A DNA stretch of 22,455 bases. It comes from Candidatus Heimdallarchaeota archaeon. GTDB taxonomy: Archaea > Asgardarchaeota > Heimdallarchaeia > Hodarchaeales > Hodarchaeaceae. The stretch's first letter is position 1. Each line of letters starts with the position of its first letter. Below the pieces are notes generated by a model, which was not told the DNA's origin, searched no databases, and saw only the letters and a list, made by a program, of their open reading frames with translations. A program made the position numbers and the translations under genes. Of this stretch, positions 5,051-18,538 are shown one piece after another. The DNA lies in NCBI GenBank assembly GCA_048881705.1, contig JBHLSH010000067.1, positions 1 through 22,455 on the forward strand, in the 5' to 3' direction.

Positions 5051-5860
5051 ATGGAGAATATTTCACTTCTTGAAGGAGATATTGTCCAAATAGAAACCTT
5101 AACTTCTCGCAAACGACGATCTTGGATCTTCACTTTAAGCAAAGGAGGTAGCTTTTTTACCCATCTGGGTACGATTAACCATGATGACTGTATTGGACGG
5201 TCATTTGGCGATATTCTTAAGTTAACAGGAGGTCAAGTTCTCCTCCTGAAGCCTACCCCACGGGACCTAATACGGAACTTTCATTTGAAAACTCAAATCC
5301 TATACGAGGACGATTGTGCCGTTGCCTGTAGTTTGGCGGGAGTTACTCCCGGGATGCGGGTAGGAGAGGCAGGTAGTGGTTCAGGGGCACTAACCACATT
5401 TCTTGCTTCAACAGTACGACCTCGGGGACATGTCTATTCCTTTGATAATAACAAAGTCCACCTAGATAATGCACGAAGTAATGTGGTGAAAGCTGGGCTA
5501 GAGGAGTTTGTGACATTCACGAACCACGACGTTCTCGAACCACTGGAAGTTCGCGGACTCGATGCGTTTTTTCTTGATTTTTCTACCCCCTATAGGGCAA
5601 TCAAGACTGTTGCTCAATCATTAAGGGGTGGAGGTAGATTAATATGCTTTGTTCCATCCTGGGGACAAGTAGAACAGACTGTTGCCCAAATTCAAGAAAG
5701 TTCATACTTCGTTTTACGTGAAACTCTCGAGATCACCCGAAGAAACTTTGTTGTTGACCCTAAGAAGCATATTATGAGGCCTGTATTTCGAGACCTGGTA
5801 TATTCGGGAATTCTAATTCATGCCATCAGGATCATTCCAAGGAAAGAGATTTCAAGATGA
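5051..5860 (+). CDS. trmI: tRNA (adenine-57/58-N1)-methyltransferase, TrmI/Gcd14 family
   Basis: N-terminal THLGTINHDDCIG, TQILY..D, SAM motif GEAGSGSGALT, DAFFLD and P..GQV. Confidence 0.92.
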   Translation: MENISLLEGDIVQIETLTSRKRRSWIFTLSKGGSFFTHLGTINHDDCIGRSFGDILKLTGGQVLLLKPTPRDLIRNFHLKTQILYEDDCAVACSLAGVTPGMRVGEAGSGSGALTTFLASTVRPRGHVYSFDNNKVHLDNARSNVVKAGLEEFVTFTNHDVLEPLEVRGLDAFFLDFSTPYRAIKTVAQSLRGGGRLICFVPSWGQVEQTVAQIQESSYFVLRETLEITRRNFVVDPKKHIMRPVFRDLVYSGILIHAIRIIPRKEISR

Positions 5861-6765
5861 TTATCTTACCCGAACCGGTCTATGCCAAGTTTTTGCGGTT
5901 TGCATTGGAAAACGCGAATCCCTATGATCGTCCAAGGCAATGGAAAGAATGTATTGGGCTGATTCTAGGACGAATAGAAAACTCTATGATCTTTGTAACT
6001 GATATTATTCCCATGAATGCGGGAAATGCAGTTTACGTTGATATTAATGACTATGAAAAGGTTTTTTCTCTTGTGCCATTCAGTAAAATTGAGGCTGGTG
6101 AGGTAGTCGTTGGTTGGGCACATACACATCCTGGTCTCGGCTTGTTTTTCTCTGGAACCGACATCCGCACCCAATATGCTTACCAACAAATGCATCCGCT
6201 TGCATTTGGATTAGTACTGGATCCCATGAAGGTGACCTCTAACTTCGCCGGTTTTCGTATCTATCGTGTTGATTCTTCGGGATCTCGAGCCATTGAAGTC
6301 GAATACAATTTTGAAGTCGATTTTGATTTTACAACGACCAGAACGCAGTTAATTACAGAGCTATACCAAGTTCCACCGATTCCCACAACCCCAATTGTCC
6401 ACTCGAATACTGAGATCGAATGGAGAGATATGAGAATACGTATTGATGGGCCCGTTCTGGGATACGTTAACAAGGATTTTACGGTTAATATGGAGATTGG
6501 TCTACGGAAAAGCCAGTATTTGCGTTTGGAATATCAAATTAGCATGACCAACTTGATCTCCAGCCTGAAATTACCCAGCGAGCAAACAATGAAGATTATG
6601 TATCACGAAGCGATTAAATCTGGTAACCTTGCAGTTTTTTCAATGTATTCCAAAAACCCTGGCCGTGCATATCTTAAAATAGAAAAATTAAAAGTTATGG
6701 ATGGGAGGCGACACTCCCAAGAAATGCCCAACCTCACACTGGTCCTTGATATCCAAGATGAGTAG
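5857..6765 (+). CDS. Rpn11/CSN5-like MPN+ (JAMM) metalloprotease with a C-terminal beta-rich domain
   Basis: E31 (KECIGLILG) plus VVGWAHTHPGLGLFFSGTD at 6121-6162 form an intact E..HxHx7SxxD JAMM motif, followed by TQ..YQ..HP.AFGLVLDP. ATGA overlap with the trmI stop. Confidence 0.9.
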   Translation: MIILPEPVYAKFLRFALENANPYDRPRQWKECIGLILGRIENSMIFVTDIIPMNAGNAVYVDINDYEKVFSLVPFSKIEAGEVVVGWAHTHPGLGLFFSGTDIRTQYAYQQMHPLAFGLVLDPMKVTSNFAGFRIYRVDSSGSRAIEVEYNFEVDFDFTTTRTQLITELYQVPPIPTTPIVHSNTEIEWRDMRIRIDGPVLGYVNKDFTVNMEIGLRKSQYLRLEYQISMTNLISSLKLPSEQTMKIMYHEAIKSGNLAVFSMYSKNPGRAYLKIEKLKVMDGRRHSQEMPNLTLVLDIQDE

Positions 6766-6806: not shown

Positions 6807-7556
6807 CTATTTGTATCTCCGATCCCCATAGACCCCTAAAGCGATGAAAGCTATGAAAATGAAGCTCACAAAGAAAAAGAGGTAAAACAGAATCTCTGGA
6901 GGTGGAGGAAGCCCTGCAATGAATTCAAAAGTCATGTTTCTGGGGAAGATACTGTCTCGGGGAAGCAATACGGTTCCTTGGTAAGTGTGATACTTGACTC
7001 GAAAAACAAATTTATATGTGCCAAATGCAGGAAGAAGGAAGGAAGGAATGTCTAAAACTTCAGTTTTAGAAGCACCTGGTGTAAGAATCAATTCTTCGGG
7101 TTCCCCATCACGATATACTACGGCCCAAGATCTATTCAAGGTATCTGGCTCACCTGAACGCACTTGATATACATCAACTGCGAACTCATGCATAACCAAA
7201 CTCCTATTATCACCGATAATAGTTGTATAGCTCGCATTCACCCGAATTGTGGATCCATTAATTACCTGGGGGATTATGGTTGCTTCTTCTGGATTTAAAA
7301 CTTCACTCGTGAGCTTCTCCAATAAAACATATCGATTTCCAACCTTAACCGCGAGATTAATAAGCTGGATTTGTATACGGGGATCAACACGTTGAGTTAT
7401 TGCCTCAGGCGATGCCCCAACCTTCGCTGGCTGGAGTGTAGCATTTATACTATATGAAAATACAATAAATGCCAATAACAATATCTTTTGTACCTTTCGT
7501 TGGTTCATCAGCCGTTTCGACCCAGCAAACTGCGATAAAATTGTCTCAGTTACCAT
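6807..7556 (-). CDS. Type I membrane protein, putative translocon-associated protein alpha (TRAP-alpha/SSR1)-like
   Basis: Signal peptide (QRKVQKILLLAFIVFSYS..KVGA), beta-rich ectodomain with several NxS/T sequons, C-terminal TM (EILFYLFFFVSFIFIAFIALGVY) and a short basic tail. Aligns by eye with the TRAP-alpha luminal domain. The start may instead be the ATG at 7508. Confidence 0.6.
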   Translation of the reverse strand: MVTETILSQFAGSKRLMNQRKVQKILLLAFIVFSYSINATLQPAKVGASPEAITQRVDPRIQIQLINLAVKVGNRYVLLEKLTSEVLNPEEATIIPQVINGSTIRVNASYTTIIGDNRSLVMHEFAVDVYQVRSGEPDTLNRSWAVVYRDGEPEELILTPGASKTEVLDIPSFLLPAFGTYKFVFRVKYHTYQGTVLLPRDSIFPRNMTFEFIAGLPPPPEILFYLFFFVSFIFIAFIALGVYGDRRYK

Positions 7557-7636
7557 TGATTTAGTAAGGATCAGTTCAAACCCGTATTGTTGCTTTATTA
7601 TCAGTTTTGCTATAGCAAGGTGTACTGTTATGAAAA

Positions 7637-8668
7637 CTACTCTAGGATCATAAGTGGGTAGGATTCCCCGATCAAACTTTCAACCGTGTTTCGTATCGTG
7701 TTTTGAGCCTCGCGAATTTCCTTAAGGTCAAAAAATTTGCCCAATTCTTTCTCAATATAGTCTTCTGGAGCCGATTTCTCGTCCCTTGATATTATGAGGA
7801 AAATTTCTCTCTCGAGAGGCCCACGAGAGAATTTGGATCGCATCCGTGCTCCAATGATTTCGTAAGCGATCAAAATTTCTAATTGACGATTGTTTACCCG
7901 TTTGACTACCTCCTCGGTTAGAACCAGGACAGAAAAAATTTCATTAGCCCGATTAGTGGAATTCAAGGTAAATATGGGAATGTACACGGGCTCGAACAGG
8001 TTTTCTAAACTGGTCTGGAATAAAAAAGGGGCGACATTGATACGATATCGTGTTGCAATTTCTTTGGAATATTCTCTAAGGTTACTCTTGATATTGCCAA
8101 GCGCACGTTTGGCCTTTCTCAATTCATCCAAAAAAGTCAGACGTTCCGTTCTTACTTTCTCTTCAATCTGTAAAATTGGAATAATAGGAAGGCCTAGGCG
8201 TACTTTCATACGCATTTGGACCTCAATTTTCTCAACAAAGTCCTGATAAGGGGTGATTTCTTCGTTGTTTTTACGGATTGGATGAAGGCGCCTAATATCA
8301 TCAAATGCTGCATTTTCTGCTTCTTGGGTCGTATAGTTTTCGCACAATATGTATTTCAAGATATTACTAAAATATTCCATTCCAGTCTGAACAGCCATTG
8401 CATCTAGTGATTGAAAGATCGGAATCGAAAATGCAATAACCAACAATCGGATCTGATTTTCTATAATTTCTTGAAAACAGAATGGACTAATCTTTCGATT
8501 AGCTCGTTGAATCAGACCATTCACACCACAGAATCTAACCTGATCTATAACATCTAATAATTTTGGATGTTGGATTGCAACTCTTTCAAACTCTGTACCC
8601 ATCCATTCCTCAATCGTTAGTAGGAACTGAAATTGCCGATTAGGAGGGATACTTTCAAAGGAACTCAT
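7637..8668 (-). CDS. Hypothetical protein with a C-terminal catalytically degenerate M48/HtpX-like zincin domain
   Basis: ATG at 8668 has an AGGTGA SD (8674-8679); the track start GTG at 8677 lies inside that SD. LVLTEEVVKRVNNRQLEILIAYEIIG parallels the HtpX V.VT.GLL..L...ELEAVLAHELGH motif with both His residues lost. Confidence 0.6.
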   Translation of the reverse strand: MSSFESIPPNRQFQFLLTIEEWMGTEFERVAIQHPKLLDVIDQVRFCGVNGLIQRANRKISPFCFQEIIENQIRLLVIAFSIPIFQSLDAMAVQTGMEYFSNILKYILCENYTTQEAENAAFDDIRRLHPIRKNNEEITPYQDFVEKIEVQMRMKVRLGLPIIPILQIEEKVRTERLTFLDELRKAKRALGNIKSNLREYSKEIATRYRINVAPFLFQTSLENLFEPVYIPIFTLNSTNRANEIFSVLVLTEEVVKRVNNRQLEILIAYEIIGARMRSKFSRGPLEREIFLIISRDEKSAPEDYIEKELGKFFDLKEIREAQNTIRNTVESLIGESYPLMILE

Positions 8669-8745
8669 TTCGGTCACCTAATGGAATCTCCCCGCTGACC
8701 TAAAAGATTTCGGTGTTGTTTCTGGCAATAAAATTGCGATCCAAG

Positions 8746-9768
8746 TTAATACCGTTTACTTGCGTGTCGATAAGCGCTGCCAAAAAGGAAAAGGAAAATG
8801 CTGAAGGCCAGTAAAATAGCTGTTGATTGACTAATTGCAGCGAGATTTCCTGAAGCAAAGTTAACAATTTGAAATATAACAAGAGTTAACCAACCCCTTA
8901 TGCTTGTATCTCTCGTTGTTGTTAATCCTTTCCAATACCTTAGGATTAACATCAGAATTCCAATAACTACCGCTCCAATATGAATCCAATCCAAAATGAC
9001 GTCAAAGGATTCACGAAATATTAAGAACAAACTTTCAAGAGAGATAAATATCAGAATCGATAGTAATGTGATCAAACGATCAGGAACATTAACTGTGTAA
9101 TCGACCTGCTTTGCTCCTTCATAGATGAAATATATAACCCCACCTATCGTAGCGGCATCAGCTAGGATGAGCGCCGAGGTGTACAGAAGGTCTATATTCT
9201 CATTCCAGGTTATAAACAGTTGAGTCAAGAAATTAAAAATACCAGTATCGGGAGTCGATGCATCAAACCCGAAATAGAAGCCTAAAATGACGAATAAAGG
9301 CAGTGGAAGGTATAACAATGTAAGAAGAAGCGTTTTACGTTGCGTTGTGATACGAGAATCCGGATCTCTCCATCCAAGCAAATAGGCCGCAATAAAATAG
9401 CCCCCAAAAAGAGAAAGTACAGGAGTGATGATAGGAAAGAAAAAGATAATCCCGATTAAGAAGTTGAATCCGTAAAACGTTCTAATAGAGGTGGGTAAAC
9501 GCCAAACTTCAAAACCAAAGGTCTCGTACGCATCTGAAATCTGATAACGACGGCCTAACGTCCAAAGAAGAAAGGGAAACGACATAACCAGCGGTCCAAT
9601 CCCATATACAATAACATCGGACCAAATACGGAGGGCCGGAGTGTCAAAGAACCATATAACTCCATTACTGAAAATAAAAGAGAGAATGTAAAAGTAAATC
9701 GGAATTAGAACAAACTGCAGGATAACAATGAGTCTACCGTAATGAAGAGAGACCTCATAGTCACTCAT
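8746..9768 (-). CDS. Uncharacterised multi-pass membrane protein (~9-10 TM segments)
   Basis: 340-aa ORF of alternating long hydrophobic stretches and short charged loops. No family motif recognised. Confidence 0.75.
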   Translation of the reverse strand: MSDYEVSLHYGRLIVILQFVLIPIYFYILSFIFSNGVIWFFDTPALRIWSDVIVYGIGPLVMSFPFLLWTLGRRYQISDAYETFGFEVWRLPTSIRTFYGFNFLIGIIFFFPIITPVLSLFGGYFIAAYLLGWRDPDSRITTQRKTLLLTLLYLPLPLFVILGFYFGFDASTPDTGIFNFLTQLFITWNENIDLLYTSALILADAATIGGVIYFIYEGAKQVDYTVNVPDRLITLLSILIFISLESLFLIFRESFDVILDWIHIGAVVIGILMLILRYWKGLTTTRDTSIRGWLTLVIFQIVNFASGNLAAISQSTAILLAFSIFLFLFGSAYRHASKRY

Positions 9769-11742: not shown

Positions 11743-12897
11743 ATGCCGATGAAAACTCAATTATATGACTATCACAAGGAAAACGGTGATATGATCAACT
11801 TTGCGGGATTTCAAATGCCCGTGATGTATTCATCCATTCAAACTGAACATATGGCTGTACGAAACAGCGTGGGACTCTTTGATGTCTCCCATATGGGACG
11901 TATGTGGATAGAAGGCTCCGATGCAGACGTTTTTATAAATTATTTGACCCCAAGAGACCTTAACAAAACATTAGTAGGACGAGCTTCATATACATTCATG
12001 TTAAACGAACAAGGCGGGTTTAAAGATGATTTGGTTTTTGAACGGATTGAGGAGAATAAGTGGTTACTGGTTTGGAACGCTGGTAATCTTCGTAAAATTG
12101 AACTATGGATTCGAACCGTCTTGGAAGCTATTAATAAATTCTCTCAGGTGGATGTGAGTATCAATAATATTTCCAACTCCTCCGCAATGTTTGCATTACA
12201 AGGGCCATTATCTCCTAGATTACTTTCTACTAAATTCACAGAGTTAAATCCGCCATCACCATGGAATGTGGTAGAGACGACCCTTGACAATATAAAAATA
12301 ATACTTTCTGGTACAGGATACACTGGCGAGAGAGGTTATGAAATTATTGTCTTTGATACCACGCCTGATAATCCCAGCAACGCGAGAAAAGTATGGGATT
12401 TCTTATTGGAGCCAAAGAATGCTGACATATCTTCCATCCCGTGTGGACTTGGCGCTCGCGACTCTCTTCGTCTGGAAGCTGGATATTGTCTTTATGGTAA
12501 CGATATTAATGAGAATCTCACCCCTGTTGAAGCTGATTTATTTTTTCCACCTTTTATCCATATGAACGGGCCGGATTTCGTTGGAAAGCAGGAACTAAAA
12601 CGTCTACAAGATAAAGATCCTGATCTTATCCGAATTGGTTTGAAGGCCGCTAAAAAAGGACCAAGCCCGAGGTCTGGAGTGAATCTTTATCATAATACAA
12701 AAAAAATTGGCCATATAACTTCAGGCGGGTTTTCGCCTCTGCTTCAGATAGGTGTTGGAATGGGGTACGTGTATCCAGAGGTAAGCGATCCAGGAACCCT
12801 AATTCAATACGAAATACGGGGAAAATTCCATGATGCTCAGGTGGCTACATTTCCACTCTTTGATCCTCAGAAGTTCGGAAGCAAGCGTCAGACCTAA
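11743..12897 (+). CDS. gcvT: Glycine cleavage system aminomethyltransferase (T protein)
   Basis: FAGFQMP..Y.SI..EH.AVR..VGLFDVSHMG, GYTGERGYE, GLGARDSLRLEAG..LYGND and GHITSG.FSP. Confidence 0.96.
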   Translation: MPMKTQLYDYHKENGDMINFAGFQMPVMYSSIQTEHMAVRNSVGLFDVSHMGRMWIEGSDADVFINYLTPRDLNKTLVGRASYTFMLNEQGGFKDDLVFERIEENKWLLVWNAGNLRKIELWIRTVLEAINKFSQVDVSINNISNSSAMFALQGPLSPRLLSTKFTELNPPSPWNVVETTLDNIKIILSGTGYTGERGYEIIVFDTTPDNPSNARKVWDFLLEPKNADISSIPCGLGARDSLRLEAGYCLYGNDINENLTPVEADLFFPPFIHMNGPDFVGKQELKRLQDKDPDLIRIGLKAAKKGPSPRSGVNLYHNTKKIGHITSGGFSPLLQIGVGMGYVYPEVSDPGTLIQYEIRGKFHDAQVATFPLFDPQKFGSKRQT

Positions 12898-15800
12898 TCT
12901 TCATCCTTTTTCTTTGCCTTCTCTCCAGTTTTACCTGAAATCCCTCCTAATTCGGATAAAGCATCTGAAAACATATCAGTAAGGCTTGGAGGTTGGACTG
13001 CAGGGGCCTCTGATAGCTTTTCCTCTGGCACCTTATCGGGAATCTCTTCATATGAAACCTCGGGGATACTAAAAATATCTTTGTCACCGGACATTTCATC
13101 TTCAGATAACGCATCCATAATTGAGGTTACCGGCAATGAAGTTGTTTGTGATGAAAATGGACTCTCACCGGGCTCAGCCTGCGTTTCTACGATCTCCTCG
13201 GGCGGAATACTAACTTCCTCGGCATGTTTTCGTGCCGATTCTTCTTCGTGAATGAGGATTTCCAGTGGAGTAAGGTCGGGAATAGCTTCTGCAGGAGGTG
13301 CCTCAATTGACGGGCTTGTTGTTTCTTTTTCTTCCTCAGGAATCGGTTCTGCTTCTTTTCGAATCAGACGACCAAATACGTCTACCTTCCATTCCTCGCT
13401 GGAAACCTGTGGCTCTTCCAGTGTGCCGAGATCTGGAATTGGTTCGGAATCCATTGAAGGTGAATCCGAAGCTACCGGAGCAAACAAGCTTTCAACATCT
13501 TCATCTGTAAGACGAACAGGTCTATCCTCAGCGGGGGTTTGATCTTCAATTCTATGCTCTTGGGGAAATAGAGACATAGCTTCTTCTTGAGACAGAGAAG
13601 TCTGCGTGGATGTTTCAATTTTATCTTCCGGAGGAGGCAATATACTACTATCAACCTCTGGAATCTCTGGTTCAGGGCTGTCAGAGACCTCAGGTACACT
13701 TTTCATGACGATTGATTCTTCTACGATCCCTGCTACCTCTTCCGCTACTTCTTCCTTTAGGAACTCTTCCGAAAGTTCCGAGGATTCAGGTGGGACTTGA
13801 AGAGATGGCGACAGGAATTCGGATGTTTCCACAAGCTCGGGAGGCGCGACAAATTCTTCGCGAATTTCAGCGGCCTCTGGTGCCGTTATCTCTTCCTCTT
13901 CGACTGATTCGTAAGCTAAACGCTTTTTCTCTAGCTCAGTGTATTCTTTTTTATATTTCCTAGCCTTAATTTCAAATTCAGAAAGATAATTTTCAACTGA
14001 TGCTTCGAGATCGGCATCGTTGCTCCTTTTTGCATATCTTGATAAAAAGACCAAGATTCCGCCCAATTTCTCCCCAGTGTTAATCATACCCCCCAATCGA
14101 CATGCATAATCAACGTAGGATTTGACCAGCGTTACGTTATCAGCGGCTATACCTTCTTTCAGTAGGCGTACAACCGTATTAAAGAGTAATTCAAAGTCCT
14201 CGACGCCTTCGAGCTTTTCTAGTGCCTTCTGGAAGGAGGATCCCGCCTTTTGATCCTTTATCCTCATCAAAAACTCCGTCATTTTTGCTTGCAAAAGGGC
14301 CGCATGCTTGTTGGCATTATATTTCTCACATAAGGTAATACCTCGTTGGAGTGTTCGAATGGCCTGACGCGGTGAAGCAACCTCATCAGCAAGGCTAGTG
14401 TAAACGTTTAAAACTCCTTCAAAGTCATTTATACTTCGATAAAAGTCTGAGGCCTGATATGCATATTCTGAAGCGAGATCAGGATTTTCTGCCGCCACAT
14501 ACAGTGTAAATTTCTCTGCAATTTTCGCAGCAAGTAGTCTCCCCTCATGACCGAACCTTTCCTGATTGGTTATCGTCCGAATAATACGATCTGTGAATTC
14601 ACGAGCGCCCTCAAGAAGTGTTCGAGAAATGAGGCCTTTAATAAAACCAAAAGCGCTCGGCAGCATATCAACCAATGACTTCTCGGTGTTTTCCAACATA
14701 CCAGACATTAAACGCGAGGCCGATGAAATCAAATCCGCTTCCAACAGGATAGATGTATATTTTTCCGAAAGTCTGTCCCCCTCAACCCCAGATCCCTCCA
14801 TATAAACCGACATGACAAAATCAACCAGGTTTTCACCCATTTCTTCTGATAAACTCCCAGATTTTATCAGTTTATCATAAAAATTCTCTGAGAAGGCTGT
14901 AAATTCATCAAAGGAGGGAGATAGGGTCTGTTTAATAGTATCTATCACCTCTGGATCGGGATGTTCTTCTACGAGGGGGATCAGATATCTGGAAGCAATT
15001 TTCTTAAAATCGTCACTATCCTCCCTTAATTTCAATATCCTCCTGAGGATATTCAGTGCGTTCGCCTTATCAGATTCGTAGATCTGGTTAAAGACCATTT
15101 GCAGGGTTTTTAGCGATTCTGATCCCTTGCCAGCCTCCTCCAAGAGCTTGGCCATTTCCAGAGTGAATCGAGTTATTGCTACGCTGTCTCCCCGCTCCCT
15201 TACTTTGTCCAGGTATTTCTTTACAGAAGCGATCACCAAAGGATATCGCTTATGTCCCCTTCCAAAACGCAGAATTAGATCGGTCATACGATCTGAATTT
15301 TCATACTGAGCTTTTTCAATGAATTTGTTTCGAACGCTTTCTAAATATCCCACCACTTCATCGATCGACCCTAGACTTTCTAAATACCGAGCATTCTGGA
15401 CACTAAAGATATAGGCGTCCTGATACCGTTCCTGTTCGATTTGTTTATTTATGATTCTTGAAACAAGGTCAATGGCTTTCTGATAGTCTTCCTTACTCTC
15501 TAACTCCTTCAGAATTTCATCAGTAATCTTCTGGGCCAAATCAATCGATTTTTCTAGGATTTCCTCCTGGAAGACGAGTAGACGTTCGATCGCGCCTTCG
15601 GGGTCCCCCATGGCACGATATGTTTCGGATATTTTATGTGTATACTTTTCTACAAGGTCAAAACGATCAGTTTCGTTTAATAGGTGTTCAACAAATCGTG
15701 AGAGATTATCAATTGCCCGCGTGTAATCTTTATTCTTTAGCTGCAAGGCCTCGAGCTGATCAAGCATATAGGCGGCGTGATCAACCGCGTTAAGTTTTAA

Positions 15801-18314
15801 TAGGTCCTTGACAAAATCTAAGAGCAGCTCATAATTCACAACTTCGGTTTGGAACATCAGGGACGCCAAATACTTCATGTAGTCCCAAGCCATGTTGTGT
15901 TCGCCAACCGCCTTGAGCTTAGTGATGAATTTTATACAGAACTCGGAAACCTCTGTAATTTTTTGTTCATCCAACAAACGGGCGAGTTCTAGGTTTGCCA
16001 TCTCTTGAGCAGTCAAGATCGCCTTACTGCTCAATAATTCGTCAACATAATTGAATATAATTTCTTGCCGTTCCTTGGGATCGCGTATTGTTTGTAGAGC
16101 TTTCTGAATATACGATTTAGAATGTGCACGGTCACCTAATTTTCCAAAGAGATCACCTAAGGTCAACTGTTTCTCGATCCGCTTGGTTTCCTCGTTTGCA
16201 TATGCTTGATCAATGAGACTTTCAGCGAATTTCAAGTAATTCCTTGCAGCTTCGGCCTCTCTCAATGTGATAAGCCCTCTAACAATGTCTAAACTAAAGT
16301 CAACCGCATCATCGACTCTTTTCAGCTCATAAAAGAGTTTAATCGCCTGATTGCCGAGATTACAGGCTTTCCTGTAATTGGTCGCATCTAGAAGGTATCG
16401 AGAGGCCTCCAATGCAACTTCTAGGGCCTTTTCTCTTTTATTTTGGTTTTCAGCCGTTAGAATGAACCGATCCACATATTTCGTGTATGTGTCCTTGTTC
16501 TTTGACTCCTTCAGGAACTGTAGTGTCTTCTCAATAGACTCCATTAGTTCAAAGTATTGCTTCTGCTCTTCCTGAACTTCGAACGCGACGTCAAGTAAGT
16601 ATACAATGTCTTTGTTATAAGTCTCTCTCTGCTCACGAGGAATTGTTTCTGGTTCGGCCTTGCCAAGCTGTTCTATTGCAAAGTGGGCGTATCGGACAGC
16701 ATTTTCCCATTGAACTGTTTGCAGTCTAGCCTTTTTGTAAAGATCGATCTGCTTTTTTCCTAGGTTAAGTACGGGAGCAATAACGTCAAGGGAGCCCTCT
16801 TCAATTAAATAGCGATCCAAGAGCAATCCACAAAGATTTGCTGCAATGAGGAATTTTTCTTGCTCTGCTAAGGGATCTAATGATGACTCGACAAACTCGT
16901 ATGCAATATTTTTATCTACCTCCAGGAGGTCTTCAGTCAGTTGATTTCGAAATTTACCTGCCTTAGAAGTCTTTTTTTGGCGGTCATAATAGTGAATGAG
17001 CTTTTTTCCAAACTGAAGAAGCCCAGTTGCATTTTGTTCCTTCCTTGCTCTTTCAAACAGAACCTCTGTACCTTTAACAGCTTCTTTCAAGTTTCCCTCT
17101 TTCTCATATCCTTCGATAACCTTTAGGAAATGGCCCATGGCTACATTGAGAACAATATCGCTGATAGGCCGTTGTGCTAGTTGTTCCATGACCTTTTGGA
17201 TCTTCTCGCTTTCATCATACAGTATACTAAAGGAGATCTGTGGCACATTCTGGTTGATTAATTTCGCAATTGCATCGTGGTCTATCTCAACTTCCTGCAA
17301 ATCGGAAGAAGTTCCGTCCCTGTACTTGAAAAGAGCGAACCAACGATCTAATTGTCTATAAACCACAAATATAGTCCTCCCAGATTTTTCAATTGGTATT
17401 TCTTTTATGGGTATTGGTTGACCTTTGCTTACAAAGTCGGTTAACTCCGCAACGAACCGGTCTAGATCATTTGCATTTTTGAATTTCGAAGTATCGAATG
17501 CGGAAAGATCAACCATGGCAAGTTCGGCCTCTGCAACTTCAAACTCCTTTGCCCGATCCGCTGTTACGCCTTCGGTCATATCACTGCTAGTTGTTTCAAT
17601 TTCCCCTATTTCTTCCAAGAATTCTCCAGGGTTTTGAATCGTTTTCTCGATCTTTTCAGCTGACTCATATATGGCAGAAAAGGAAAGAAACTCTATTCCA
17701 GCCTTGGTGATCATGTTAACAAGATCGTCTTGATTCACAGAATCCCTGGTGTATTTTTTCCTAACCACCTGTTTTTCTCCGTCAAACAACACCACAGCGT
17801 ATTTCCCATCTTTAGTATGATAGATCCCTGCTTCCCCGTTACGCGAATAGGGCATTTCAAACTTGTGTAATAGCTTATCACCATATTCAACAAGTTGCTT
17901 TTTGACAGGTACCGAAGCTACTTGTGGTGATGGAGTTCCGACCATCTCTGCAGGATGCTTTTCCTTTGTAATCTTTTTAGCCTCTTGAATTGGGGGCTGC
18001 GGTTTTTCGGATGTGACTGAACGACTATCATCACCTAGATCTAGCTCTCTAAACGCTTTAATATGTTCTAATAATAGGTCAGCTACATCGAAAATAGCGG
18101 AAAAACTGAAAAATTCAATTTCTGCCTCCGAAAGTAATTCTACAAGCGTATCCTGGACGAAAGGTCCTGTGAGCGTGCTCGTTTTGATGAGACGTTCATT
18201 CTGATAAAATTTCAGTACATATTCATCACGCTTAAGACTTTCGTGAATCTCACATTCCACGCCAGACGTGGACGGAAGTTCCAGTCTAACTTGTTTTTCT
18301 TCCCGGGTTGCCAT
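12894..18314 (-). CDS. Giant (~1806 aa) scaffold-like protein: three N-terminal repeats of an ~80-aa beta/alpha domain, a long TPR/SNAP-like alpha-solenoid and an acidic Pro-rich disordered tail
   Basis: Uninterrupted 5.4-kb ORF; ATG at 18314 preferred over TTG at 18368. Helical-repeat periodicity from about 17170 to 13914. E/D/P/S-rich tail at 12894-13913. Stop codon overlaps the gcvT stop. Confidence 0.85.
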   Translation of the reverse strand: MATREEKQVRLELPSTSGVECEIHESLKRDEYVLKFYQNERLIKTSTLTGPFVQDTLVELLSEAEIEFFSFSAIFDVADLLLEHIKAFRELDLGDDSRSVTSEKPQPPIQEAKKITKEKHPAEMVGTPSPQVASVPVKKQLVEYGDKLLHKFEMPYSRNGEAGIYHTKDGKYAVVLFDGEKQVVRKKYTRDSVNQDDLVNMITKAGIEFLSFSAIYESAEKIEKTIQNPGEFLEEIGEIETTSSDMTEGVTADRAKEFEVAEAELAMVDLSAFDTSKFKNANDLDRFVAELTDFVSKGQPIPIKEIPIEKSGRTIFVVYRQLDRWFALFKYRDGTSSDLQEVEIDHDAIAKLINQNVPQISFSILYDESEKIQKVMEQLAQRPISDIVLNVAMGHFLKVIEGYEKEGNLKEAVKGTEVLFERARKEQNATGLLQFGKKLIHYYDRQKKTSKAGKFRNQLTEDLLEVDKNIAYEFVESSLDPLAEQEKFLIAANLCGLLLDRYLIEEGSLDVIAPVLNLGKKQIDLYKKARLQTVQWENAVRYAHFAIEQLGKAEPETIPREQRETYNKDIVYLLDVAFEVQEEQKQYFELMESIEKTLQFLKESKNKDTYTKYVDRFILTAENQNKREKALEVALEASRYLLDATNYRKACNLGNQAIKLFYELKRVDDAVDFSLDIVRGLITLREAEAARNYLKFAESLIDQAYANEETKRIEKQLTLGDLFGKLGDRAHSKSYIQKALQTIRDPKERQEIIFNYVDELLSSKAILTAQEMANLELARLLDEQKITEVSEFCIKFITKLKAVGEHNMAWDYMKYLASLMFQTEVVNYELLLDFVKDLLKLNAVDHAAYMLDQLEALQLKNKDYTRAIDNLSRFVEHLLNETDRFDLVEKYTHKISETYRAMGDPEGAIERLLVFQEEILEKSIDLAQKITDEILKELESKEDYQKAIDLVSRIINKQIEQERYQDAYIFSVQNARYLESLGSIDEVVGYLESVRNKFIEKAQYENSDRMTDLILRFGRGHKRYPLVIASVKKYLDKVRERGDSVAITRFTLEMAKLLEEAGKGSESLKTLQMVFNQIYESDKANALNILRRILKLREDSDDFKKIASRYLIPLVEEHPDPEVIDTIKQTLSPSFDEFTAFSENFYDKLIKSGSLSEEMGENLVDFVMSVYMEGSGVEGDRLSEKYTSILLEADLISSASRLMSGMLENTEKSLVDMLPSAFGFIKGLISRTLLEGAREFTDRIIRTITNQERFGHEGRLLAAKIAEKFTLYVAAENPDLASEYAYQASDFYRSINDFEGVLNVYTSLADEVASPRQAIRTLQRGITLCEKYNANKHAALLQAKMTEFLMRIKDQKAGSSFQKALEKLEGVEDFELLFNTVVRLLKEGIAADNVTLVKSYVDYACRLGGMINTGEKLGGILVFLSRYAKRSNDADLEASVENYLSEFEIKARKYKKEYTELEKKRLAYESVEEEEITAPEAAEIREEFVAPPELVETSEFLSPSLQVPPESSELSEEFLKEEVAEEVAGIVEESIVMKSVPEVSDSPEPEIPEVDSSILPPPEDKIETSTQTSLSQEEAMSLFPQEHRIEDQTPAEDRPVRLTDEDVESLFAPVASDSPSMDSEPIPDLGTLEEPQVSSEEWKVDVFGRLIRKEAEPIPEEEKETTSPSIEAPPAEAIPDLTPLEILIHEEESARKHAEEVSIPPEEIVETQAEPGESPFSSQTTSLPVTSIMDALSEDEMSGDKDIFSIPEVSYEEIPDKVPEEKLSEAPAVQPPSLTDMFSDALSELGGISGKTGEKAKKKDED
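17178..18296 (-). repeat. Three protein-level repeats at the N-terminus of the giant ORF
   Basis: R1 18051-18296 (..QDTLVELLSEAEIEFFSFSAIFDVAD..), R2 17628-17876 (..QDDLVNMITKAGIEFLSFSAIYESAE..), R3 17178-17420 (..HDAIAKLINQNVPQISFSILYDESE..). Each begins with a [LMI]P-x-x-x-G-type strand region. Confidence 0.8.
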
Positions 18315-18538
18315 CTCTAAAAACTCTATGACAAATTTAACTGTACAGGTGGTTCGAATAGATTTCAAACTTCAATGAATAAAAAGAAGTCTCTTTATTT
18401 TTCCTTGCCAGATTCTTATCCTCAAAACATGTAATGTTATGGGGGAAAGATGAAAAAGGTTTCTATATCATATTAATGGGCATCATTTCACCCAGTTACG
18501 ATCATGTGGTGAGTAAAAAGCTAGAATTTAAACCATTA

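Follow-up and report, generated by a model that had tools for sequence, protein, structure and literature searches.

A single-copy Asgard archaeal membrane protein family as a candidate divergent counterpart of eukaryotic TRAP-alpha

TRAP (for translocon-associated protein) is an accessory complex that sets the translocon of the eukaryotic endoplasmic reticulum (ER) apart from prokaryotic Sec channels, and its occurrence in Asgard archaea bears on the pre-eukaryotic origin of the secretory machinery. Within the complex, the conserved β5-β6 loop of the alpha subunit (TRAP-alpha) contacts the hinge loop of Sec61-alpha. The tail of TRAP-alpha anchors on the ribosome, with a Trp inserted into uL29 and contacts with the 5.8S rRNA; the three lumenal TRAP domains have one fold, and Jaskolowski et al. 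suggest that the alpha, beta and delta domains are paralogous (PMC10279528). The solved lumenal interface between alpha and beta covers only ~244 square angstroms, and mammalian TRAP-alpha is glycosylated at Asn136 and Asn191 (PMC10702806). Among Asgard archaea, Eme et al. (2023; PMC10307638, Supplementary Discussion 4.2) described very divergent TRAP-alpha homologues, detectable by profile-profile methods only, in Loki-, Hermod-, Thor- and Heimdallarchaeia, together with a TRAP-delta found only in Thorarchaeia (PMC10307638), and the TRAP-alpha homologue of MK-D1 was studied in a JBC paper of 2024 (PMC11417166). Here we analyze a gene on contig JBHLSH010000067.1 of Candidatus Heimdallarchaeota archaeon (GCA_048881705.1), of which positions 1 to 22,455 constitute the window. 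A reading of the window from its letters and open reading frames (ORFs), hereafter the sequence-only reading, had proposed that this gene encodes a TRAP-alpha homologue. It had stated, correctly, that distant TRAP homologues were already reported from Asgard archaea (PMC10307638, PMC11417166), and since they are published, the gene adds no new kind of system.

The ORF exists as had been described, at positions 6807..7556 of the minus strand (stop codon 6807-6809), and encodes 249 amino acids (aa) when read from the ATG at 7556. Translation probably begins further in, at the ATG at 7508 (M17), where the database gene calls and all orthologues begin; residue numbers given below refer to the resulting protein of 233 aa. 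Its closest database relative is 87% identical and is named Candidatus Thorarchaeota archaeon. A signal peptide is predicted at 7440..7508 (minus strand), in which we read a basic n-region (MNQRKVQK), a hydrophobic core (ILLLAFIVFSY) and a possible cleavage site formed by SINA and the T that follows. The AlphaFold2 (AF2) model of the protein, built on a 15-sequence alignment, has a mean predicted local distance difference test score (pLDDT) of 80, and consists of a signal-type helix (residues 2-21), a disordered linker (22-40), a β-sandwich (45-197) and a long helix (205-232). The sandwich constitutes the extracytoplasmic domain (6918..7376, minus strand) and is mostly modelled with a pLDDT of 80-95. 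It is followed, after a PPPP motif, by the single C-terminal transmembrane helix (6825..6896, minus strand), which ends in a conserved G-x-x-G; a hydropathy scan shows one strongly hydrophobic C-terminal segment (Kyte-Doolittle maximum 2.9). The cytoplasmic tail, as read from the sequence, comprises the five residues DRRYK (6810..6824, minus strand). Model and scan agree with the signal peptide, β-sandwich ectodomain and single C-terminal transmembrane segment seen earlier, and neither the acidic N-terminus nor the long cytosolic tail of TRAP-alpha can be read in the sequence, as had also been stated. The same layout of signal peptide, one sandwich and one helix is common to all members of the family delimited below, with a cytoplasmic tail of at most ~15 basic residues. 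We predict that the gene product is a cell-envelope glycoprotein of type I topology, with a cleavable signal peptide and with its N-glycosylated sandwich outside the cell.

As a reference for TRAP-alpha we used SSR1 (PF03896) and its solved structures (PDB 8B5L chain q, 8B6L chain E and 8BTK chain TA), on which the lumenal-domain-plus-helix fold of the target superposes. Foldseek retrieved the alpha chain of the ribosome-Sec61-TRAP complex (8b5l_q) with an E-value of ~4e-4 amid many other sandwiches, with the best template modelling (TM) scores of that group, and alpha was the best-matching chain in each of the five PDB entries that contain TRAP. In the ESM-Atlas fold search, first place went to a eukaryotic cluster of which 99% belongs to PF03896 (TM-score 0.50 over 145 residues). 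Judged from the model, TRAP-alpha stands in the top tier of fold matches, and is the best-scoring one with the same topology. The Hodarchaeota form, of 188 aa, was also modelled with AF2, but as the pLDDT was only 65, that model was left out of the fold searches.

The target protein by itself gave no match in Pfam and NCBIfam scans or to any PDB sequence, and HMMER, run exhaustively with a three-sequence profile over 1.8 billion representatives, returned only 16 relatives. The way into the wider family was synteny. A convergent pair with a JAB/MPN gene, present in genome G025 and in family f6 (f-numbers denote the Asgard families of the genome sample, G-numbers genomes and A-numbers alignments or profiles), revealed an f6 partner protein of ~201 aa that HMMER had missed, and whose layout is identical to that of the target. 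Comparison of the close family (A4) with these syntenic Thor f6 proteins by hhalign gave a probability of 94.8% (E-value 5e-8), and a profile merged from both detected further members in f2, f3, f5, f8, f21, f23 and f25. A4 also aligned to a wider Asgard set (A11; 98.3%, E-value 2.4e-14) and to a further set (A14; 98.0%, E-value 3e-13). With a profile free of any same-genus sequence, the target gene was the sole match in its genome (E-value 5.5e-4), and the family was found as one copy in most Thorarchaeia (26/29 genomes of f2, 10/11 of f3, 3/3 of f5 and 8/11 of f6) and was also present in f8, f20, f21, f23 and f25, including lineages outside the Thorarchaeia. In f10 and f13, which are the largest two of the Asgard families sampled, the family profile gave only weak matches inside long proteins. 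From these sequence searches, the family appears to be single-copy, fast-evolving, confined to Asgard archaea and 170-250 aa in length. As delimited here, it spans the Thorarchaeia and no fewer than five further Asgard families.

One f6 genome (G123) carries, beside its f6-type copy, a second copy of f2 type that encodes 212 aa (L150, contig C60, positions 76-711) on a 3-kb contig. This extra copy may be the "second copy" that Eme et al. describe, or may reflect contamination of the bin.

Identity between the ectodomains of different subfamilies is only 13-25%, and the most conserved features are membrane-proximal: a sequon at N191, the Pro-rich (PP) motif and, where the helix ends on the cytoplasmic side, the G-x-x-G (G225 in 27/38 members and G228 in 35/38). 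These three are the defined invariants of the family. The target contains six N-glycosylation sequons, five of which lie in the mature part (N84, N91, N101, N125 and N191). The sequence-only reading had located the Asn codons of N-R-S and N-M-T at 7134-7136 and 6936-6938, which is exact, and had concluded that both glycosylation sequons of TRAP-alpha are retained. This holds for N191-M-T (6930..6938, minus strand), situated where the last β-strand begins, ~14 residues ahead of the membrane helix: 32 of 38 family members have a sequon in this alignment column, and hhalign places N191 on Asn191 of TRAP-alpha. It does not hold for N125-R-S (7128..7136, minus strand), which had been equated with Asn136. 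A sequon is found in the N125 column in 15/38 members, and at most eight columns away in 31/38, but none of the family sequons aligned to Asn136 in the profile alignments, where Asn136 falls ~8 residues after N125. The N84-G-S sequon (7251..7259, minus strand), which had gone unmentioned, is invariant in the 15-sequence close family and present at that column in 15/38 members of the wide family.

To obtain genuine TRAP-alpha sequences, the protein database was probed with a 77-residue stretch. More than 1,200 PF03896 proteins were retrieved, with identities to the probe of up to 100%, and from such database proteins, without the probe itself, we built a vertebrate alignment (A8) with an effective number of sequences (Neff) of 1.3-1.6. 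Against this vertebrate-only template the wide family aligned with probabilities of 60-83% (P about 1e-5 to 4e-4), whereas reversed-template controls gave P-values of 0.15-0.19. The individual profiles scored 66-83% (A9), 36% (A11), 74-80% (A12, P 1.5-2.9e-5) and 60% (A14), with a constant register. This register reproduces four of the five blocks of the by-eye alignment to TRAP-alpha that had been proposed, namely LILTPGASKT with VVPPQRQAT, FGTYKFVFRVKYHTYQGTV with GRPFGLVINLNYKDLSGNV, NMT with NQT, and EILFYLFF with ETIFMYMF; the fifth, LNRSW with IQNFT, was not recovered. Independently of the vertebrate alignment, one A14 member (G084, family f25) matched PF03896 with an E-value of 4.3e-4 and 20.0 bits, below the gathering score of 24.7 bits. 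The match covers nearly the whole domain (residues 26-158 on positions 15-137 of 180), and is accompanied by a weaker match to Wzt_C. The single G084 protein found nothing in the vertebrate alignment (P 0.18), from which we conclude that the vertebrate-only template is underpowered.

The family resembles eukaryotic TRAP-alpha in being type I, with one Ig-like β-sandwich directly followed by a single long helix and a basic stretch, in the sequon that aligns to Asn191 where the last strand begins, in the order of the sequence blocks in the profile alignments, and in its coexistence with a TRAP-beta homologue. Based on fold, topology, one sub-threshold Pfam match and weak but concordant profile alignments, we infer that it is a divergent archaeal counterpart of TRAP-alpha, and probably the one reported by Eme et al. 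(2023), at a probability of roughly one half. With the latter, which are described from Thor-, Loki-, Hermod- and Heimdallarchaeia, it shares its strong divergence, accessible to profile-profile methods only, and the layout of signal peptide and single helix; it differs in having one copy per genome, where two copies were described in Thorarchaeia, and in that its profile fails to reach f10 and f13 except for the weak matches inside long proteins. PF03896 found nothing above its cut-off in 151 Asgard genomes, which agrees with "very divergent". The identity put forward by the sequence-only reading is thus the best supported one, but it is unproven, as the target and its close family never reach TRAP-alpha by sequence search.

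Several observations weigh against the assignment. In the genome of the target, PF03896 missed the target gene and gave chance-level matches elsewhere only, and it matched neither the target nor its close relatives. The profile also catches unrelated ends of long proteins of the type strand-NxT-helix-KK; the sub-threshold matches that we inspected and rejected lay on the wrong strand over ribosomal protein genes, in a zinc-ribbon protein, and at the "NxT-helix-KK" end of a protein of 780 aa. When the profiles A2, A4, A7, A11 and A12 were compared with all PDB sequences (E-values up to 10), TRAP-alpha was not among the matches listed, which comprised single-pass helices (glycophorin, ACE2, Notch) and BsuPI only. 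Most of the hhalign score is contributed by three C-terminal elements, namely juxtamembrane strand, membrane helix and basic tail; restricted to the ectodomain, P rises to 0.04 (A12), 0.005 (A9) and 0.19 (A4). The last value means that the close family by itself does not exceed chance once the membrane helix is removed, and the comparison becomes suggestive only with the enlarged family. For scale, the ectodomains of two undoubted Asgard subfamilies align to each other with a P of only 0.02. The Hodarchaeota/Heimdall subfamily (A7) reached 8.5% over 43 columns, which take in no more than juxtamembrane sequon, helix and basic tail. The sequence case for the name TRAP-alpha is therefore thin, with an ectodomain barely above chance and a fold that is common to Wzt_C.

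The fold match is likewise not specific, as it ties with sandwiches of the Wzt_C and RhoGDI type, and the nearest neighbours in the language-model atlas are archaeal CARDB, DUF11 and DUF7490 clusters, all below the score of 0.9 above which a match is more than a lead. According to the sequence-only reading, generic Ig/CARDB domains without any hit to TRAP-alpha would speak against its proposal; generic neighbours of this kind, one part of that condition, did appear in the language-model search. The family profile also aligns to the Thor TRAP-beta homologues with 96.2% (P 2.4e-9; 66.7% for the ectodomain only) and so outscores vertebrate TRAP-alpha, in a comparison that is unequal and favours the more diverse template because A8 has a Neff of 1.3-1.6. 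This match allows the family to be a paralogue within the TRAP alpha/beta/delta group, or a generic CARDB-like protein. In direct comparison with eukaryotic TRAP-alpha, moreover, the target lacks the acidic N-terminal region of ~80 residues and has a tail of five residues instead of the ribosome-anchoring tail of ~58 residues, so that both elements through which eukaryotic TRAP-alpha is functionally anchored are missing. It further differs in a sandwich that is ~38 residues longer, in having no aligned counterpart of Asn136, in giving no significant sequence match of its own, and in its location in the cell membrane instead of the ER.

The alternative that best withstands these data, although we regard it as unlikely, is that the family consists of generic membrane-anchored, N-glycosylated E-set surface proteins of the CARDB/TRAP-beta-like kind, which would have only fold and topology in common with TRAP-alpha and would serve, for example, in envelope structure or adhesion, with no role at the translocon. 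The CARDB, DUF11 and DUF7490 neighbours, the ties with many unrelated sandwiches and the ectodomain P of 0.04 are what such a protein would give, as are the fast divergence of the ectodomain between subfamilies and the fact that the strongest profile match (96%) is to the Thor PF05753-type family, a profile that passes its cut-off in two non-Asgard control genomes too. Against this, the family is strictly single-copy and retained across the Thorarchaeia, unlike surface-protein families, which can expand, and its invariants lie at the membrane-proximal strand and the helix, as expected if these pack against a membrane complex. The only TRAP-type Pfam match is to TRAP_alpha, which also heads the Atlas fold list.

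A translocon role does not predict the gene neighbourhood of the family, which weighs against the assignment to TRAP-alpha. Immediately downstream of vATP-synt_E (subunit E of the A-ATPase, PF01991; AtpE), on the same strand and at a distance of 6-260 bp, most lineages carry the family gene. Among loci with enough flanking sequence, this pairing is found in f21 (1/1), f8 (2/2), f3 (8/10), f5 (2/2), f6 (8/8), the genus of the target (12/17) and f2 (at least 2/6), and it also occurs in Hodarchaeota contigs and G025. In three complete genomes the paired subunit E gene is the sole copy, located 0.5-3.5 Mb from atpA/atpB. The pairing is the one observation of this analysis that may be new, and any functional model must account for it. 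In the window, the slot of AtpE is an intergenic gap (7557..7636) from which the subunit E gene is missing. Comparison with G259 of the same genus (L191, 6056-8919) and with the f2 genome G074 (L192, 4915-7338) illustrates this: where G259 has a 342-aa gene, AtpE and the family gene in succession, the window has a 340-aa gene, a 346-aa gene and the family gene. The 346-aa gene (7637..8677, minus strand) is the orthologue of the 342-aa gene of G259 (61% identity), has no Pfam or NCBIfam match, and stands beside the family gene in this genus only; it shows no significant match to the gene preceding AtpE in G074 (BLASTP E-value 0.039). That gene is instead homologous over its full length to the 340-aa gene of the window (8746..9768, minus strand; 27% identity, E-value 1e-21), which places the 340-aa gene in a Thorarchaeia cluster of 340-aa gene, AtpE and family gene. 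The 340-aa product is a polytopic membrane protein that belongs to no Pfam, NCBIfam or atlas family, and its nearest atlas cluster is unnamed, from Promethearchaeota. PF01991 found no match in the target genome (91% complete), nor in the same-genus genomes G102 and G292, which also lack the pairing, and only two sub-threshold matches in G241, another same-genus genome where the pairing is lacking. Family f23 keeps the family gene unpaired as well.

In G259, contig C1 carries two ATP-synt_ab genes (A and B subunits; 1369272-1369928 and 2698284-2698949). As these lie 1.3 Mb apart, the A-ATPase genes of this genome seem to be dispersed and not organized in one operon.

Ac45/Voa1 and the prorenin receptor are type I accessory proteins of the V-ATPase, each with a lumenal β domain and one helix. 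The pairing could accordingly be explained if the family were an accessory or assembly membrane protein of an A/V-type ATPase with a similar layout, co-expressed with the peripheral-stalk subunit E, an explanation that we consider improbable. The adjacency in most lineages, the solitary subunit E genes far from atpA/atpB and the conserved polytopic membrane protein before AtpE speak for it. On the other hand, no V-ATPase accessory chain was among the structural matches listed, and we know of no archaeal A-ATPase subunit of the type I sandwich-helix kind. The adjacency could also be inherited gene order, and the persistence of the family gene where AtpE is absent from the locus or from the genome, as in the window and its nearest relatives, and where it is unpaired, as in f23, argues against strict dependence. 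A more far-reaching version, to which we give a similarly low chance, is that the family is functionally coupled to the A/V-type ATPase, the family gene and the sole subunit E gene forming an ancient and widely retained two-gene unit that in Thorarchaeia is preceded by the conserved polytopic membrane protein. The family protein, and perhaps the ancestor of eukaryotic TRAP-alpha as well, would then serve the rotary ATPase in its assembly or membrane biogenesis, or be one of its accessory subunits. If such a coupling were true, the family would prefigure the type I accessory proteins of the V-ATPase, such as Ac45/Voa1, and not a general helper of the translocon.

The similarity to TRAP-beta raises the question of whether the family could represent another lumenal TRAP subunit, i.e., TRAP-delta or a second paralogue of TRAP-beta. 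TRAP-delta is laid out in the same way and its tail is very short, and the significant profile similarity of the family to the TRAP-beta homologues would fit. So would the single fold of the three lumenal domains (PMC10279528) and the restriction of TRAP-delta to Thorarchaeia (Eme et al., 2023), on which the family is centred. We nevertheless find this very improbable, for the following reasons. The TRAP-delta profile (PF05404) yielded no match in the target genome at E-values up to 10 and no credible match in 81 Thorarchaeia. In a scan of ~55 family members, neither TRAP_beta (PF05753, cut-off 22.4 bits) nor PF05404 was among the matches listed, while one member matches PF03896, and in the fold searches alpha surpassed the other chains of all TRAP-containing entries. 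The family occurs outside the Thorarchaeia too, and TRAP-beta has an orthologue of its own in the same genomes. In the target genome, this orthologue is encoded at C28:20739-21185 and passes PF05753 with 44.6 bits; homologues were found in 52 of the 61 Thorarchaeia searched. It resembles the studied family in its signal peptide, one E-set sandwich, C-terminal helix and short basic tail (96% over 127 columns), but it is a separate gene at another locus, and passes the PF05753 cut-off, for which the studied family has no entry among the matches listed. A complex prediction with the ectodomains of the target and of the TRAP-beta homologue gave a score of 0.00, which weighs neither way on binding. 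TRAP-gamma was not detected by profile search of the target genome, where PF07074 gave chance-level matches only.

The TRAP-beta locus (L002, 875-3168; genome G000, contig C28) places the gene between EndA (tRNA-splicing-endonuclease-like) and a divergent ArsA/Get3-type ATPase, both neighbours being identified by eye. Get3 is the eukaryotic targeting factor for tail-anchored proteins.

Identity with Wzt_C (PF14524; PDB 5HNO, 6O14 and 2R5O), to which five of the ~55 members scanned have weak matches, was rejected, as the best member reaches 16.3 bits against a cut-off of 30.4 and the match stops short of the helix, and as Wzt_C resides in the cytoplasm, at the C-terminus of an ABC-transporter ATPase, and has no signal peptide, membrane helix or glycosylation, whereas the target has a signal peptide and a membrane anchor but no ATPase domain.

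If the family is indeed the counterpart of TRAP-alpha, its action can be pictured by analogy with the solved Sec61-TRAP complexes. The target would adjoin the SecYE-beta channel, anchored in the membrane by its helix and with its sandwich under the extracytoplasmic mouth of the channel, where the sandwich might hold the emerging chains or steer them, and assist AglB/OST in their N-glycosylation. As the target lacks a ribosome-anchoring tail, docking would be possible only via the channel, the membrane helix or other subunits. Should the tail-less protein truly work at the Sec channel, eukaryotes would have added the ribosome anchor later, and the target may, as the sequence-only reading had suggested, represent a minimal ancestral state.

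The neighbouring genes in the window, as assigned by Pfam, are of archaeal kind and comprise FttA, an Fe-ADH_2 protein, TrmI/GCD14, the JAB/MPN protein, SHMT and GcvT. The JAB/MPN gene (5857..6765, plus strand; Pfam JAB 4.3e-13) is convergent with the family gene and overlaps the TrmI/GCD14 gene by 4 bp at its start; its product contains the JAMM motif HTHPGLGLFFSGTD and a C-terminal extension of ~150 aa. The pair of JAB/MPN and family gene is kept in Thor f1 and f6 and in one Heimdall-type (f21) genome, G025. We considered this adjacency as a general feature of the family and rejected it, since the JAB/MPN gene does not stand beside the family gene in other lineages. In the f6 genomes, a gene for a Ras/Roc-type small GTPase directly precedes JAB/MPN (L103, 740-1399, and equivalents in L104-L108), forming a cluster of GTPase, JAB and the convergent family gene. 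Finally, the window contains a giant ORF (12894-18368, minus strand) of 1,824 aa that has no Pfam match at an E-value of 0.001, and a counterpart of ~1,806 aa occupies the same place in the sister genome contig L077.

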